Part shown: positions 11,884 to 25,230 of the stretch, in pieces
Layout: each line of letters opens with the position of its first letter
How positions within the stretch are numbered: the first letter of the stretch is position 1
Source: Escherichia phage vB_EcoM_G17
Direction: 5' to 3' (one strand)
Sequence record: MK327931.1
DNA: 64,000 bases
The notes under the pieces: generated by a model
What the model saw: the letters and a program-made list of their open reading frames with translations, nothing else
The model's database searches: none
Told to the model about the DNA's origin: nothing
Made by a program: the position numbers and the translations under genes

Positions 11884-11920
11884 ATTATAGCAAAAAGGGC
11901 TGACCGAAGTCAACCCTTTT
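11884..11920 (-). promoter_or_regulatory. Stem-loop embedded in sigma70-like promoter (PeSL-like) / terminator
   Basis: Minus strand reads aaaagGGTTGACttcgGTCAGCCCtttttgcTATAAT: TTGACT, 18-nt spacer containing hairpin, TATAAT; copy 1 of 8. Confidence 0.6.
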
Positions 11921-13297: not shown

Positions 13298-13334
13298 ATT
13301 ATAGCAAAAAGGGCTGACCGAAGTCAACCCTTTA
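13298..13334 (-). promoter_or_regulatory. PeSL-like stem-loop/promoter (copy 2)
   Basis: Same 45-bp element as at 11884: gggctgaccgaagtcaaccc + attata. Confidence 0.6.
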
Positions 13335-14035: not shown

Positions 14036-14551
14036 TTAATAATTATTCATTTCATCTTTGATTTGTTCTTCAATTTCGTCGAACATATCAGTACTAGATT
14101 CGTTCTTACTACTTACGTTCTGCATATCTTTAACGTACTGTGGACATTCAACATCAGTAAACTTATACCACGTAGGCTTCATCTGGAGCTTCTCAATCAA
14201 ACGATCACGAGACATTTTAATCTCTGACTCCGTTGGTACGTAGTCATTACAAAACTCAGTAGGGAAGCCGCTAATGTCGTTTACTTCAGTGTTTTGAATC
14301 TTCATACCACGACGCAGACATTCGTTGACAATATCAATATGACGCTTCTGTAAGTACAATAACTTGTCGTAAAAGAATGTCACATGACCTGAACCTAACA
14401 GATAAGTACTATTAATTTTGAAATCACGTACACGCTTACGTGCTTGAACGTGTTTTTGTACAGCACCAAATACACGTGGGAGTTCACGATATTCAGCCAT
14501 CAGATGTTGGTCAGCAAGTTCTTTAACGTGTACTAAGTTAATGCGTGTCAT
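14036..14551 (-). CDS. denV: Endonuclease V (pyrimidine-dimer DNA glycosylase), T4 DenV-like
   Basis: N-terminus [31 protein letters not shown]...VRDFKI...[10 protein letters not shown] closely matches T4 endo V from memory; 171 aa, so C-terminus longer than T4's. Confidence 0.9.
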
Positions 14552-14579: not shown

Positions 14580-14616
14580 ATTATAGCAAAAAGGGCTGAC
14601 CGAAGTCAACCCTTTT
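14580..14616 (-). promoter_or_regulatory. PeSL-like stem-loop/promoter (copy 3)
   Basis: gatgaaataattatagcaaaaagggctgaccgaagtcaaccc, upstream of denV. Confidence 0.6.
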
Positions 14617-14618
14617 CT

Positions 14619-14888
14619 TTATTCAATGATCCCCAACTTCACAATCTCATACCCGTCCAGATAGCCGTAGGAACACTCAGGTGTTTCATAAGATGAACCA
14701 TCATGGATGCCCTGGCATTGACTTTTGGAATTCTCAAGCAATCGTTGCAGTACTGATACGTCATCAAGAACGTAATACAAGTTAGCATATAGGTCAGTTA
14801 CAATACAGTACTCCAACATATCAAATGTATCAATCGAAATTTCAACCTTAGCAAATCGTTTCTTTTCTTTATTATACAGTGCGTACAT
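14619..14888 (-). CDS. hypothetical protein (89 aa)
   Basis: Start MYALYNK placed directly after upstream stop (TAATATG). Confidence 0.5.
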   Translation of the reverse strand: MYALYNKEKKRFAKVEISIDTFDMLEYCIVTDLYANLYYVLDDVSVLQRLLENSKSQCQGIHDGSSYETPECSYGYLDGYEIVKLGIIE

Positions 14889-14889
14889 A

Positions 14890-15306
14890 TTAATCTCCAT
14901 AATCAAGTTTAACTAACTTACCACCCAGATACCCAAAGTTTTCTGGCTTCGCATCTGAATAGAAGAAGTCAGTACTTAACTCTGAATTCAATGCTAAAGC
15001 ACACAACTCCACCCAAAATAAACCCCTATGTTGAACTGGCTTACAACGTTTCTGTACAGTTACTAGTCCAGTACATGATGACCACAACGTAGGACAGATA
15101 CTACTATCACTACGATTGGAGTACTGCATCCACGAACGTTCATTGAGGTTAGCTATCATCCCTGTTAAGAATAGCTTCCAACTTTTAAAGGTTGGAATCT
15201 TGATAGCATATTCCCCAATGAGGATAACAGTTCGTGTTGCACCTTTCAAATCTATATTCATATTTTTAATTAGAAGAACACAAACCAAGTCCAGAACAAA
15301 TTCCAC
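14890..15306 (-). CDS. Protein-kinase-like mini protein (N-lobe plus catalytic loop only)
   Basis: LIGEYAIKIP (VAIK-like) and FYSDAKPENFGYLGGKLVKLDYGD (D-x-KPEN ... DFG-like); ORF ends right after DYG; start may be internal MNIDLKG at 15261. Confidence 0.5.
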   Translation of the reverse strand: MEFVLDLVCVLLIKNMNIDLKGATRTVILIGEYAIKIPTFKSWKLFLTGMIANLNERSWMQYSNRSDSSICPTLWSSCTGLVTVQKRCKPVQHRGLFWVELCALALNSELSTDFFYSDAKPENFGYLGGKLVKLDYGD

Positions 15307-15521
15307 ATTACAAATAAAGACATAGTGGTTTTATGTACAATATCAGCAGTACTGGTCCATCCTCCACCGTGTCCTATTCCATTTATGAATAGAACTAAGA
15401 ACAAGATACCATTTACTACAATAGTACATACTAAGTACACAAATACATTCCATGCAAGTCCAGGGGATACTAAAGTAAATGGTAAAACTATTAGTAGTAT
15501 TAGAACTAATAATATTTTCAT
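15270..15521 (-). CDS. small membrane protein (83 aa)
   Basis: Hydrophobic; overlaps upstream ORF start, so boundaries uncertain. Confidence 0.45.
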   Translation of the reverse strand: MKILLVLILLIVLPFTLVSPGLAWNVFVYLVCTIVVNGILFLVLFINGIGHGGGWTSTADIVHKTTMSLFVMWNLFWTWFVFF

Positions 15522-15560
15522 TTATCGCCTCACTTAATTAACGTGACATATCACGTAATA

Positions 15561-15737
15561 TTAGTACGAATCAGATTCCCAGTACTCGATTGCTTCTTTC
15601 AGCAATTCTTTAGCACGTTGTTTTGCAATGCGAGCGGGGAACTGATATGTGTACATTAACTGACGCTTCACTTCATTCAGTGAAAGCTGTTCATGGTACA
15701 GTGCATCCATCAGTCGATTACGAGTACGTAGTTTCAT
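15561..15737 (-). CDS. hypothetical small protein (58 aa), not in ORF track
   Basis: MKLRTRNRLMDALYHEQLSLNEVKRQLM...; RBS aaggataa upstream. Confidence 0.4.
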   Translation of the reverse strand: MKLRTRNRLMDALYHEQLSLNEVKRQLMYTYQFPARIAKQRAKELLKEAIEYWESDSY

Positions 15738-15748
15738 ATAAGTTATCC

Positions 15749-16303
15749 TTATTTCAAAGAATCATAGTAAGCAGTGTCAAAGATTGGAGTCATAATAACA
15801 TAGTCAATACGGTCAATGTAAGTTGAACTCCACATTTCTGGTTTGTCATATAACTGACGCTCGCGTTCATTCATACGAGTCAGTACTTCTTCCAATTTAC
15901 TACGTGAATCCATCAATGTATTACTCGAACCATAAGTGAAGTACTCAGTCCAATGATATTCATATTCAGTACTGATAGATTGAATAGTACCATCTTTGAA
16001 ATGAGCTAAGGCATAACCTTTCTCTACAAAGTTATCAGGTGGAAGAACACCATCTGGATTAGTTTTCAATGCTTGTGCTAACTTTTCTTTAATTTCATTT
16101 AACGTGCATACTGAACGAATGTTCTTCAGGTTTGATACTTGAAAATCACTGTACTTTCCAAAGAAAAAGACACGCCAATCTTTAGGTTCATTATCAGATA
16201 CGGTAGCATCAGGGTGATGGGCGAGTAAACGAAGAAGGCCAGCTTTGTGACCGTTAATGTAGATTTCATGGATGTGGTTAGCAGTTTTCTTAAAAGTAAT
16301 CAT
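15749..16303 (-). CDS. hypothetical protein (184 aa)
   Basis: ORF downstream of consensus promoter at 16351. Confidence 0.6.
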   Translation of the reverse strand: MITFKKTANHIHEIYINGHKAGLLRLLAHHPDATVSDNEPKDWRVFFFGKYSDFQVSNLKNIRSVCTLNEIKEKLAQALKTNPDGVLPPDNFVEKGYALAHFKDGTIQSISTEYEYHWTEYFTYGSSNTLMDSRSKLEEVLTRMNERERQLYDKPEMWSSTYIDRIDYVIMTPIFDTAYYDSLK

Positions 16304-16350
16304 GGTAGTTCCTCGATTGTAGGGATGAGAAGTTCATCCCCTTGATAAGC

Positions 16351-16378
16351 ATTATACAGTACTGAATGTGTTTGTCAA
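16351..16378 (-). promoter_or_regulatory. sigma70-like promoter TTGACA-N16-TATAAT with CAGTACTG abutting -10
   Basis: Minus strand: TTGACAaacacattCAGTACTGTATAAT. Confidence 0.6.
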
Positions 16379-16379
16379 C

Positions 16380-16775
16380 TCAAAATAAATTCATTTCATG
16401 TGCGTATTGTGGTTCAAGATAAGATAAGTTTTTGAAACTGTCTTTCAATTCTGCATCATCTACGTACACAGTACCAGGTACATTCCCCATAGTGAAGCCA
16501 ACCCAAACAGTCATGTTTCCAGTTCCTAAGCGGGGCATTGATAGCGTCCCGTCAGGTGAAACATCAAACGCTACACTAAAGTCATCCGTTACAACTTCCG
16601 AACCATTTTCCAGAATAATACAACCACGTTCTTTAAGCTTCTGAATGTGGATAGAAGCCTCTACTGCACGTTTAAAGTTATAGTAAGACTCTTTATCCTC
16701 AAACATAGATTGTTTAACCAGACGCTTGTTTAGCTCGGTTACTTTGTACATTTGTCGCATTACTTCAACTCCCAC
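16380..16775 (-). CDS. hypothetical protein (131 aa)
   Basis: ORF in array. Confidence 0.55.
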   Translation of the reverse strand: MGVEVMRQMYKVTELNKRLVKQSMFEDKESYYNFKRAVEASIHIQKLKERGCIILENGSEVVTDDFSVAFDVSPDGTLSMPRLGTGNMTVWVGFTMGNVPGTVYVDDAELKDSFKNLSYLEPQYAHEMNLF

Positions 16776-17014
16776 AGTTGTAGAATTTCATAAGAGCCTG
16801 GTGGTGCTGGATTGATAATCTCAGGGTATTCAGTACTGTTAGGATTACCACCAGCATTGAACTCAGCAAGTAATAATTCGAGTTCATTCCTATCATGTAC
16901 AACAAACACGCAATATCCAGTTCCTTCTTCAAGAACTGTAGTTGACCCCGCACAATCCCATACGGTATCAATACATAATAATTCTTTAGTGTTTTTATTA
17001 CGCAACGCAAACAT
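16760..17014 (-). CDS. hypothetical protein (84 aa)
   Basis: Balanced composition; preferred over overlapping 16765..17178 frame. Confidence 0.5.
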   Translation of the reverse strand: MFALRNKNTKELLCIDTVWDCAGSTTVLEEGTGYCVFVVHDRNELELLLAEFNAGGNPNSTEYPEIINPAPPGSYEILQLWELK

Positions 17015-17023
17015 ATTTGTCTC

Positions 17024-17392
17024 CTATCGATTCGGCATATTCTTTCGTAGTCGCAAGAGAAATTCAACCACTGACCATGTTGTAATGAAGGCAATATAAG
17101 TTGCAAGGAATCCAGTAAGAATAAATGCAACCAGCGTACTACCATTTGGGGAATCAGTTTTAATGCCGATGACACCATCGGCTACAGTGAAACATGTAGC
17201 CATTAATGTGTAACCTACGTACAACACAAAGAAAAACTCATTCTCCATTGAAGGATAGAAACGGTTAAACACTTTATAAAATTTAAAGTACAGTAGGATT
17301 ATACCAACAAAGGCATAGAATGTAAACAGTGTTGTTATAATATATGAGATTAGGTTCAAATTATACATATCAACGCTCCGGTAGATTATCAC
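17024..17392 (-). CDS. small polytopic membrane protein (paralogue family, tail NMPNR)
   Basis: Hydrophobic; paralogue of next two ORFs; start may be MYNLNL at 17368. Confidence 0.6.
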   Translation of the reverse strand: MIIYRSVDMYNLNLISYIITTLFTFYAFVGIILLYFKFYKVFNRFYPSMENEFFFVLYVGYTLMATCFTVADGVIGIKTDSPNGSTLVAFILTGFLATYIAFITTWSVVEFLLRLRKNMPNR

Positions 17393-17717
17393 GTAATGTT
17401 TTAATTCGATGATACATTTTCATACCAATATTACCAAAGATACCATATCCAAGTACTAAAATGTATGCGATAAGCATAGTAATAATTACTATAGTACCAA
17501 AACTATAATGTACACTACTGATACCCATTGTAGTTTCAACGATTATTTGAGAAACTGAAAGAATCAAAAGTACAACTACAATTGGATGATTTGGGTACAT
17601 TCGGTTGAACAACGTTTTGTACTTAAAGAAGCACAGTACTCCACCAAATAAGAAGTAAACAATGTAAATGCAAGCAACAGCATAGGCAAACATGTTAGTG
17701 TAATAAATCATTACCAA
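17370..17717 (-). CDS. small polytopic membrane protein (paralogue family, tail NLPER)
   Basis: 115 aa; hydrophobic. Confidence 0.6.
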   Translation of the reverse strand: MVMIYYTNMFAYAVACIYIVYFLFGGVLCFFKYKTLFNRMYPNHPIVVVLLILSVSQIIVETTMGISSVHYSFGTIVIITMLIAYILVLGYGIFGNIGMKMYHRIKTLRDNLPER

Positions 17718-17720
17718 TCC

Positions 17721-18059
17721 TTACTTTTCAGGGATATTAGAACGCCATATATCAATGCGATGAACTAGTCCAAAGAACAACCATACTGGAACGGCAGCTA
17801 TCATAACAACAAATGAAAACCCAGTCAAGACCGATACCAGATTTAATTCATCAGTACTATACCCACATATCAGTACTTCTAATATTCCCCACGTACATGC
17901 ACAAAACATCAAGAATGAAATTGGGGCATCATAGTAGATACGTTCATATAAAGTAGTGTATCGGAAGAATGCAATAATGTAGCAAAACATATAATACACC
18001 CAAACCAAAGATACTACATAAAATGATACTTTGTTTATTAATTCAAAATATTGTTCCAT
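17721..18059 (-). CDS. small polytopic membrane protein (paralogue family, tail NIPEK)
   Basis: 112 aa; hydrophobic. Confidence 0.6.
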   Translation of the reverse strand: MEQYFELINKVSFYVVSLVWVYYMFCYIIAFFRYTTLYERIYYDAPISFLMFCACTWGILEVLICGYSTDELNLVSVLTGFSFVVMIAAVPVWLFFGLVHRIDIWRSNIPEK

Positions 18060-18061
18060 TT

Positions 18062-18343
18062 TTACCCCAATATATATTCAGAGAGTAATGTATTAGCTTC
18101 ATCTTTGTTCTTAAGGTAATACATGTAATATAGATTCGGTTCACCATCTTTAGCACTCAAATCGAAGTACTTTAAACTATGTACTTTCATAGTAAAAACA
18201 AATAATGACTTAAAACCAATCTCACCGTACTTAATAAACAGTTCATCCAAATGAATGTAACTTTTTGATTTGGATAATTCTTTAACGTCTGCATCAATTT
18301 CAGATAAAAGATGCTTACCTATTAAGTTTTCAAATGAACGCAT
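18062..18343 (-). CDS. hypothetical protein (93 aa)
   Basis: ORF in array. Confidence 0.5.
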   Translation of the reverse strand: MRSFENLIGKHLLSEIDADVKELSKSKSYIHLDELFIKYGEIGFKSLFVFTMKVHSLKYFDLSAKDGEPNLYYMYYLKNKDEANTLLSEYILG

Positions 18344-18404
18344 GATTTTATCCTTTACCGCAATTTTTATGGTTTATTAAGAATACATCAGAACATCAGT
18401 TCTG

Positions 18405-19079
18405 TCAATAAAAAACTGGATCTTCTTCAGTAATTGGTATTTCTCTACGCACATCACACGAAAGAGGATCAGTAATGAATACATTCCCATCTTTATCCAT
18501 CATCACATTACTTGAATGAATGTCTGGTACAAAACGCCCGTGAAACTCTTTCATGATGTTAGCAGCGACCGTTGCAATAGCAATCTCTTCAGAATTTCCA
18601 CGCATATCATTCACTGAAGTTGCGTACTGACCAGCATGTGCATACGAATACAAATCTCCAATTTTAGTACTAACAAAGTCATCATAATTATTTTTTTGTT
18701 TAATTATAGGATAGTACTTGTCCATCTCATACCATCCAAAGTTTCCTTGTTCGTTTGCACTGTAGATCACAGGAAGAAACTTGGTTCCTGCGTTTTCAAT
18801 GCAGTACTTTGCATAAGCACGAAAACCATCCCAGCGTGAAGTGGTTACTTTAAATGCACTTCCAGGATAGTTTTTATGTTCAACTACTACAGAGTACATC
18901 CCCATTCCAAGCAAAGTAAGTCCAGCAGCTTTAACTTGTGGAAAGATTACGCGTTCAGCATAAGGAATATCAAACTCCATCGCACAACGAGTTTTTGATG
19001 GACGCAAAATGTCAATTAAAGTTTTGAATATTTCTTGCTTAGTCATTACTTTATCCTCTGTAGTTAATACCAACATCAT
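18405..19079 (-). CDS. Putative atypical kinase-like protein
   Basis: LGMGMYSVVV (Gly-loop-like), AFKV, and DIHSSNVMMDKDGNVFITDP (catalytic-loop/DFG-like); weak, by eye. Confidence 0.35.
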   Translation of the reverse strand: MMLVLTTEDKVMTKQEIFKTLIDILRPSKTRCAMEFDIPYAERVIFPQVKAAGLTLLGMGMYSVVVEHKNYPGSAFKVTTSRWDGFRAYAKYCIENAGTKFLPVIYSANEQGNFGWYEMDKYYPIIKQKNNYDDFVSTKIGDLYSYAHAGQYATSVNDMRGNSEEIAIATVAANIMKEFHGRFVPDIHSSNVMMDKDGNVFITDPLSCDVRREIPITEEDPVFY

Positions 19080-19081
19080 AA

Positions 19082-19112
19082 CAAAAAAGGCTGACCGAAG
19101 TCAACCCTTTTA
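19082..19112 (-). promoter_or_regulatory. PeSL-like stem-loop / terminator (copy 4)
   Basis: aaaaaaggctgaccgaagtcaacccttttatta. Confidence 0.55.
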
Positions 19113-20164: not shown

Positions 20165-20200
20165 ACAAAAAAAGGCTGACCGAAGTCAACCTTTAGTTTT
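20165..20200 (-). promoter_or_regulatory. PeSL-like stem-loop (copy 5)
   Basis: acaaaaaaaggctgaccgaagtcaaccttt. Confidence 0.55.
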
Positions 20201-21774: not shown

Positions 21775-21805
21775 AAAGAAAAGGCTGACCGAAGTCAACC
21801 TTATT
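21775..21805 (-). promoter_or_regulatory. PeSL-like stem-loop (copy 6)
   Basis: aaaaggctgaccgaagtcaacctta. Confidence 0.55.
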
Positions 21806-21949: not shown

Positions 21950-21990
21950 TTATGATACAACAAAGGGCTGACCTTAGTCAACCCCTTTTT
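21950..21990 (-). promoter_or_regulatory. PeSL-like stem-loop (copy 7, loop variant)
   Basis: gggctgaccTTAGtcaacccc; minus strand TTGACT-N18-TATCAT. Confidence 0.5.
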
Positions 21991-25193: not shown

Positions 25194-25230
25194 ATTATAA
25201 CAAAAAAGGCTGACCGAAGTCAACCTTTGT
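25194..25230 (-). promoter_or_regulatory. PeSL-like stem-loop/promoter (copy 8)
   Basis: attataacaaaaaaggctgaccgaagtcaaccttt; overlaps stop of 25220..25411. Confidence 0.55.

Follow-up and report, generated by a model that had tools for sequence, protein, structure and literature searches.

A candidate ultra-minimal kinase family ending directly after the DFG motif, encoded within 4 kb of a T7K-like kinase in Escherichia phage vB_EcoM_G17

Catalytic residues and predicted fold of ORF1

Can a protein that stops directly after the DFG motif of a protein kinase be a kinase in its own right, or is it a fragment of a longer one? The question is raised by a 64,000-nucleotide stretch of Escherichia phage vB_EcoM_G17 (record MK327931.1; this whole stretch is referred to here as the window), in which a preliminary description had pointed to two kinase-like open reading frames (ORFs), at 14890..15306 (ORF1) and 18405..19079 (ORF2). 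Both are present at these coordinates, on the minus strand, and both are genuine genes. Our analysis favors, at somewhat better than even confidence, a reading in which ORF1 is a Ser/Thr-type phosphotransferase of ultra-minimal size, consisting of no more than kinase subdomains I-VII, and ORF2 is a T7K-like kinase.

The most likely start of ORF1 is ATG 15261, since the annotations of the corresponding genes in two related phages (121Q gp215; Sharanji gp134, WNN14422.1, ‘hypothetical protein’) and the N-termini of all homologs agree on it; the alternative GTG 15306 falls within the upstream gene. The gene at 14890..15261 (minus strand) thereby encodes a protein of 123 amino acids (13.9 kDa, isoelectric point (pI) 8.7), which contains VILIGEYAIKIP and FFYSDAKPENFGYLGGKLVKLDYGD, with a TAA stop codon directly after FFYSDAKPENFGYLGGKLVKLDYGD. 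The ATP-anchoring lysine is found in the β3 strand A-I-K21-I-P (15193..15207, minus strand), and the αC glutamate, E41 (15139..15141, minus strand), follows 20 residues later. The catalytic loop, β7-β8 and the DFG equivalent make up the segment D103-A-K105-P-E-N108-FGYLGGKLVKL-D120-Y-G122 (14896..14955, minus strand), and the stop comes one residue later, which places the C-terminus three residues past the DFG Asp (D120). Among 159 family representatives, K21 was kept in 157, E41 in all 159, Asp or Glu at position 103 in 153, K105 in 135, Asn or Ser at position 108 in 153 and D120 in 155. The spacings of K21 to E41 (20 residues), D103 to N108 (5) and N108 to D120 (12) are canonical or close to it by PKA numbering. 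The position of the Gly-rich loop is occupied by a β1-β2 turn, G7-A-T9-R10-T-V12 (15226..15243, minus strand; G7 and R10 in 155 and T9 in 132 of the 159), which retains only the first Gly and the β2 Val of a GxGxxG loop. The kinase-motif residues are the most conserved columns in the ORF1 and ORF2 families alike. The alignment of the ORF1 motifs with a kinase catalytic loop and DFG, noted earlier, goes well beyond a chance resemblance: the candidate catalytic residues vary little or not at all across the family, and in ORF1 they are canonically spaced.

The structure predicted for ORF1 by AlphaFold2 is a confident one (predicted local distance difference test score (pLDDT) 90.3, predicted template modeling score 0.80). 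The modeled elements are β1-β3 (residues 2-23), αC (28-43), β4-β5 (58-71), an αE-like helix (79-92), a short helix and β7-β8 (109-118); they form a five-stranded N-lobe, then a hinge and a single αE-like helix, follow the order seen in kinases and can be superposed on solved ones. The best matches of the model in a Foldseek search of the PDB were the atypical kinase Lpg2603 and many structures of TTK/MPS1. In Hanks terms the protein consists of subdomains I-VII, and the activation segment, P+1 loop, APE motif and helices αF to αI are missing. The preliminary description had named the lack of any kinase fold in profile hidden Markov model (HMM) and structure searches as the outcome that would count against it; instead, the confident models of both ORF1 and ORF2 retrieved kinases almost exclusively.

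With the single sequence and with profiles of 14 and 113 sequences, ORF1 had no significant sequence match in the PDB, and the sole consistent sub-threshold matches (E 0.4-1.2) paired the catalytic loop-to-DFG segment of the family with D-L-K-P-A-N...D-F-G of TTK. Scans of ORF1 and ORF2 against Pfam, NCBIfam and PADLOC matched no kinase family. The Pkinase HMM did not match ORF1 or 113 family members at E<=1, and a Pfam scan of 113 members returned scattered noise only, including two weak matches to FAM69 kinases and one to ABC1. A kinship of ORF1 to ORF2 or to the T7 kinase gp0.7 (T7K) was considered and rejected, as BLASTP found nothing and hhalign gave probabilities of 0.3% for ORF1 against T7 gp0.7 and 0.7% for the ORF1 against the ORF2 family. 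Judged by its modeled N-lobe, αC, αE, catalytic loop and β7-β8, its Lys-Glu pair, D-x-K-x-x-N and the Mg-binding Asp of DFG, ORF1 is predicted to belong to the protein kinase-like fold. It is not a Pfam Pkinase (Hanks-type) domain, for which GxGxxG, subdomains VIII-XI and an HMM match are all lacking.

Over its first 120 residues ORF1 shares its fold with the Hanks-type Ser/Thr kinases (TTK/MPS1, PknB) and with HopBF1, and the Hanks-type enzymes have the same K...E...D-x-K-P-x-N...D-[FY]-G motifs at the same spacing, but ORF1 is about half the size of their canonical domain and is without GxGxxG and subdomains VIII-XI. The type III effector minimal kinases OspG and NleH have 160-196 amino acids and keep C-lobe helices after DFG, whereas ORF1 ends three residues past the DFG Asp. 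They are 12-15% identical to ORF1 (PDB 4q5h, 4lrj) and are bacterial effectors working in eukaryotic cells, whereas ORF1 is a phage protein. HopBF1 (176 residues in 6pwd) exceeds ORF1 by at least 50 residues. The archaeal RNA kinase ArkI/Ark1 (PDB 7vnx, 8yv5) keeps the C-lobe subdomains IX and XI (PMC9095486), both of which are missing in ORF1. T7K has no detectable sequence relation to ORF1, which also lacks the N-terminal helical extension of about 50 residues and the extra helices of a T7K-type domain. At 123 amino acids, ORF1 is shorter than every solved kinase-fold protein that it matched here.

A widespread phage family with a native post-DFG ending

To describe the family of ORF1, an HMM was scanned against 1.84 billion representatives of protein clusters formed at 50% identity. 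It matched 1,206 cluster representatives at E<=1e-3 (639 at <=1e-10), and among the best 150 of the 1,206 nearly all are 110-135 amino acids long. The C-terminus lies 2-3 residues past the DFG Asp in 115 of 155 aligned representatives. A word-indexed search returned 15 relatives, of which the 14 complete ones have 118-127 amino acids and all end in KLD[YFA]G plus one residue, and a second profile search returned only ‘hypothetical proteins’ of 100-151 amino acids with no Pfam domain on record, copies from Acinetobacter and Aquimarina prophages among them. The family is thus large, almost wholly phage-borne and uncurated, and its post-DFG ending is a native, conserved architecture. ORF1 had been described as a truncated mini-kinase: it does end one residue past DYG, but with 115 of 155 representatives ending alike, the absence of everything from the activation segment to αI is by design and not a truncation.

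In nucleotide records, tblastn located the family in 117 phage records, including those of jumbo phages, T4-like Dhakavirus and siphoviruses of Pseudomonas and Xanthomonas; the hosts of family-bearing phages include Escherichia, Salmonella, Pseudomonas, Aeromonas, Acinetobacter, Aquimarina, Rhizobium and others. Within Asteriusvirus genomes the ORF1 gene is 93-100% conserved. The matching coding sequence is labeled a Ser/Thr or ‘STE family’ kinase in three records, and the one that was examined, Kc263, is a long variant. ORF1 matches phrog_4301 (‘unknown function’ in PHROGs v4) at E 2.2e-44 over profile positions 37-167 of 225, as do relatives in JS10, PaMx11, OBP and a Salmonella prophage; the length of the profile, 225 positions, is due to long variants in it whose tails are not those of kinases. 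Neither Pfam nor NCBIfam has a model for the family, and in the literature on mini- or smallest kinases and in phage kinase surveys we found no description of it. ORF1 is a new and drastically shortened form of the kinase fold. A search of GTDB species genomes with the pattern DxKPEN[FY]GY confirmed no relative, and complete E. coli genomes do not contain the variant of the Salmonella prophage.

Two subtypes of catalytic loop were distinguished, D-x-K-P-E-N in 82 and E-N-K-x-D-S in 42 of 155 representatives. Both keep the β3 Lys, the αC Glu and D-Y-G, and the second may have a shifted or altered catalytic arrangement. The long members OBP_197 and Kc263 are not full-length kinases, as their tails have no post-DFG kinase motifs and no Pfam match; the apparent 1,073-residue member P0060 is a repeat artefact; and the label ‘putative virion structural protein’ in SXP01 belongs to a neighboring coding sequence, not to the ORF1 homolog.

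The preliminary description had also proposed looking downstream of ORF1 for a C-lobe in another frame, and none is encoded there. The next gene (14619-14888, minus strand, 89 amino acids) begins 1 nt after the ORF1 stop and is an independent member of phrog_8563, of unknown function, with a paralog of 84 amino acids at 16760-17014 (minus strand). In other lineages the gene that follows the ORF1 homolog is unrelated to it, and phrog_8563 is not adjacent.

ORF2 and the genomic setting of both genes

As judged from its sequence, ORF2 is a stand-alone homolog of the kinase domain of T7 gp0.7, without the shutoff domain. In hhalign with a profile of 17 homologs, residues 61-230 of T7 gp0.7 aligned with the ORF2 family at a probability of 98.7% (E 3e-16, 168 columns), with the Gly-loop, the F/IKV lysine, DxHxxN and ITDP in register, and among the PHROG profiles ORF2 matched phrog_15752 at 1e-97 and phrog_2828 (‘serine-threonine kinase’) at 7e-16. 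For T7 gp0.7 itself no solved relative was found by sequence in the PDB. The AlphaFold2 model of ORF2 (pLDDT 90.4) had 198 Foldseek matches in the PDB at E<=1e-3, and all 50 of the 50 listed are kinases or aminoglycoside phosphotransferases. In the numbering of the 224-residue ORF, and all on the minus strand, the Gly-rich loop is G58-M-G60-M-Y-S-V-V-V (18882..18908); the β3 lysine is K77 of F-K-V (18849..18851), which is invariant and pairs with I-K-V of T7 gp0.7; the catalytic loop D186-I-H188-S-S-N191 (18507..18524) pairs with D-M-H-S-G-N; and the DFG-like D204-P-L (18462..18470) is the counterpart of DPV in T7K. D204 is invariant in the family and P205 and L206 are conserved at 90% or more. 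ORF2 shares with T7K the Gly-loop, the F/IKV lysine, the DxHxxN loop and a DPx in place of DFG, but has DPL where T7K has DPV.

The alignment ends at residue 230 of the 359 in gp0.7, and since only 20 residues remain after D204-P-L, ORF2 lacks the C-terminal shutoff (SO)/DNA-binding domain that T7K has. By homology with T7K, the activity of ORF2 would most likely be the phosphorylation of Ser/Thr/Tyr in host proteins at an early stage of infection, without the DNA-binding targeting of T7K. The gene is already known: the record of phage 121Q labels its counterpart a protein kinase, WNN14432.1, which is the ORF2 gene, was named as a T7K homolog in the Sharanji paper (PMC11895373), and diverged T7K homologs without the SO domain, in which the Val of DPV is not conserved, were described from jumbophages, Escherichia phage G17 and Munch among them (PMC13645617). 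Only the corrected start codon is new here. The kinase-like character first noted for ORF2 is upheld by T7K homology and by its fold, but its motifs, rated then as weaker than those of ORF1, belong to the better-established and published of the two proteins.

The start of ORF2 is probably ATG 19046, because a Shine-Dalgarno sequence, AGAGGA, lies 7 nt upstream of it, every aligned homolog starts at the corresponding Met (most have 213 amino acids), and the ATG 19079 used in the databases is located within TATGAT, the -10 hexamer of a promoter-hairpin cassette upstream of the gene. ORF2 would then span 18405..19046 (minus strand; 213 amino acids; 121Q gp205, Sharanji gp144) in place of the database coordinates 18405-19079 (224 amino acids in 121Q and Sharanji). 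Two Asteriusvirus jumbo phages of about 350 kb each, Escherichia phage Sharanji and phage 121Q, match a stretch of 5.6 kb around both ORFs at 99.9% and 99.2% identity, respectively, and the window comes from a jumbo phage of this genus. All genes of the stretch are on the minus strand. The Sharanji paper (PMC11895373) names a further ‘protein kinase of unknown function’, WNN14351.1, which lies outside the window and is neither ORF1 nor ORF2, so that this phage group may have three kinase-like proteins.

The cassette upstream of ORF2 (19075..19110, minus strand) is similar to the PeSL motifs, promoter-terminator elements of T4-like phages (PMC2839356, PMC4122927). It consists of a UUCG-loop hairpin (-14.8 kcal/mol) with the -35 hexamer TTGACT in its 5' arm, a T-run, an 18-nt spacer and the -10 hexamer TATGAT. 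A general pattern, AAAGGGTTGACTTCGGTCAGCCYTTTTTG..TATRAT, occurs in eight stably folding copies in the window where none would be expected, all intergenic and on the minus strand (11897-11916, 13311-13330, 14593-14612, 19088-19107, 20173-20192, 21782-21801, 21965-21984 and 25207-25226); in the form AAAGGGTTGACTTCGGTCAGCCCTTTTTG(c)TATAAT it has a UUCG-loop hairpin of -15 to -19 kcal/mol with TTGACT in the 5' arm, a T-run and a TG-extended -10. The repeated cassette looks like a PeSL-like element of an Asteriusvirus jumbo phage that marks early transcription units. ORF2 is the first gene behind the copy at 19075..19110, which would act as its early, host-σ70 promoter. A σ70 promoter of perfect consensus, TTGACA-16 nt-TATAAT (16351..16378, minus strand), lies in the intergenic stretch that precedes gene 15749-16303 and is the putative promoter of a five-gene run that includes ORF1. 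With σ70-type promoters ahead of them, both ORFs would therefore be transcribed early by the host RNA polymerase; T7K is an early, promoter-proximal gene, and the promoters suggest the same for ORF2. Another PeSL-like hairpin with promoter (14580..14615, minus strand; -18.8 kcal/mol) is found just past the 89-residue gene and closes the block from ORF2 through ORF1.

Between the two kinase genes, three tandem genes on the minus strand (17024-17392, 17370-17717 and 17721-18059) encode apparently similar hydrophobic proteins of 112-122 amino acids, which have an F..Y...F.R.YP-like segment in common and carry ...NxPxR/K at the C-terminus. The three genes have the look of a paralogous array for small membrane proteins, and the one of them that was scanned (17721-18059) had no Pfam match.

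The denV gene mentioned in the preliminary description was confirmed at 14036-14551 by a match to Pfam PF03013 (E 5.9e-15), two genes downstream of ORF1. In five contigs of PaMx11-like siphoviruses, to which the jumbo phage is unrelated, denV lies directly downstream of the ORF1-family gene (L032, 3501-3989; L035, 495-980; L036, 2888-3436; L037, 3264-3830; L039, 3500-3994). When the ORFs within about 3-5 kb of the family gene at 41 loci of 17 lineages were compared all against all by BLAST, no family besides the kinase recurred across lineages, apart from synteny internal to lineages and denV, in two of them. Other nucleic-acid enzymes were seen singly: RNA ligase 2 (rnlB) directly downstream of the family gene in JS10, RtcB two genes upstream on the viral contig L030, and DNA ligase and an exonuclease near it in PaMx11. 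This repair-gene theme is suggestive and statistically unconvincing; it could be a link to nucleic-acid repair or a coincidence. Elsewhere the family gene lies between Rz and Nu1 of Salmonella lambdoid prophages, a typical moron locus, upstream of terminase genes in some lineages, and inside the head-tail module of Acinetobacter prophages. In an Acinetobacter prophage and related metagenome contigs (L045-L047), a member of 119 amino acids with D-K-K-P-E-N...D-F-G is encoded at 4001-4360, with the major capsid gene on one side and the tail tube gene on the other. This placement is unusual for an enzyme and raises the possibility of late expression or packaging into the virion in some phages.

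Possible activity of ORF1 and competing explanations

If ORF1 is a phosphotransferase, it would hold Mg-ATP in the usual cleft, and transfer of the γ-phosphate would proceed from a completely open active site. An active site so exposed would probably be constitutive and promiscuous, or else dependent on self-association or on a host protein that replaces the support of the C-lobe; this last option is modeled by analogy on OspG, which needs E2~Ub (PMC5364150). Host proteins would be the first guess for a substrate and nucleic-acid ends the second. The conservation of the catalytic residues favors an active kinase over a pseudokinase or decoy. The most far-reaching version of this proposal, that ORF1 is a self-sufficient, active 14-kDa kinase, always on and promiscuous toward host proteins (for example of defense systems) or nucleic-acid ends, carried by thousands of phages and here alongside a T7K-type kinase, is put forward only tentatively and at well below even confidence.

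Several observations weigh against reading ORF1 as a minimal phosphotransferase. In every characterized kinase known to us, the catalytic loop and both hydrophobic spines are anchored by the αF helix; ORF1 is without it, and therefore a free-standing unit of subdomains I-VII may be unstable or inactive alone. Where GxGxxG would be expected, ORF1 has G-x-T-R. Glu and Ser take the places of D103 and N108 in about 30% of the family representatives (E-K-S in 42 of 155), and some long variants have lost K105, so part of the family may be non-catalytic. Because no significant match was obtained in Pfam, NCBIfam or PADLOC or by sequence in the PDB, the kinase assignment rests on predicted structure and motif conservation. 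The genomic contexts of the family are heterogeneous (moron, head-tail, repair and early clusters) and give no clear functional pointer, and it is the consensus promoters alone that suggest early timing.

ORF1 could instead be a non-catalytic nucleotide binder (a pseudokinase, a binder of ATP or a signal nucleotide, or a decoy) whose N-lobe pocket would hold a ligand or a host protein but transfer no phosphate. Phages encode small nucleotide sponges. Tad2-like and Acb2/Tad1-like genes occur in two neighborhoods of the family, and a protein that has dispensed with αF, the whole substrate-binding half and the canonical Gly-rich loop, in a family with E-K-S loops and variants without K105, could be such a binder. 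In pure binders, however, the catalytic Asp and the Asn/Asp that bind Mg are usually lost, whereas ORF1 and the majority subtype keep the full set of D103, K105, N108 and D120; the changes of D to E and N to S are conservative, and catalysis could persist with them. We regard this explanation as unlikely, though it deserves more weight than any other alternative. Somewhat less probable still is a kinase acting on a non-protein substrate, be it a nucleic-acid end, a 2'-OH (in RNA/DNA repair, together with ligases) or a small molecule. The missing peptide-binding elements would fit such a role, as would the mostly basic character of the family (median pI 9.0, with 101 of 139 above pI 8) and the repair neighbors, namely RNA ligase 2 in JS10, RtcB on L030, DNA ligase/exonuclease in PaMx11, and denV in the PaMx11-like loci and the window. 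But repair genes were present in only about 4 of 17 lineages, and the 3 ligase neighbors seen compare with about 1 expected by a rough estimate, an enrichment not clearly above chance since phage genomes are rich in nucleic-acid enzymes; the remaining contexts are lysis/terminase morons or head-tail modules. In addition, D-x-K-P-E-N is a signature of Ser/Thr protein kinases, and APH-type enzymes carry another loop.

The two remaining explanations concern the genes themselves. That ORF1 is a pseudogene, decaying from a full-length kinase, or the front part of a gene that a frameshift has split, with its C-lobe in another frame downstream, might be read from its end one residue past DYG and from its covering only positions 37-167 of the 225 in phrog_4301. 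The family-wide architecture effectively refutes this: the ending is shared by 115 of 155 representatives, lengths of 110-135 amino acids prevail among the best 150 of 1,206, the gene is 93-100% conserved in Asteriusvirus, the next gene is a phrog_8563 member in its own right, with a paralog, and the tails of long variants have no kinase motifs, leaving this reading barely credible. A chance resemblance, with both ORFs unrelated to kinases, has in its favor that neither contains a Pfam kinase domain and that ORF1 has no significant sequence match in the PDB. It is the least credible of all and is refuted by the fold and profile results, given that both models retrieve kinases, ORF2 is homologous to T7 gp0.7 and the motif columns are the most conserved.

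The reading of ORF1 as a minimal phosphotransferase bears on how little of a kinase is enough. The αF helix and the C-lobe are regarded as a scaffold that the catalytic and regulatory spines cannot do without, and a widespread family that has all catalytic residues yet ends right after DFG challenges that view. If ORF1 is active, it would define the minimal kinase unit and offer a 14-kDa scaffold for engineering. That the family is labeled ‘hypothetical protein’ almost everywhere points to a gap in annotation. The phage kinase T7K and its homolog JSS1_004 have recently been shown to disarm bacterial defenses broadly (PMC13645617, PMC12345140); the ORF1 family would be a second, unrelated and far more widespread family of mini-kinases and would expand this theme, for which a phage with genes of both types less than 4 kb apart offers a natural test.

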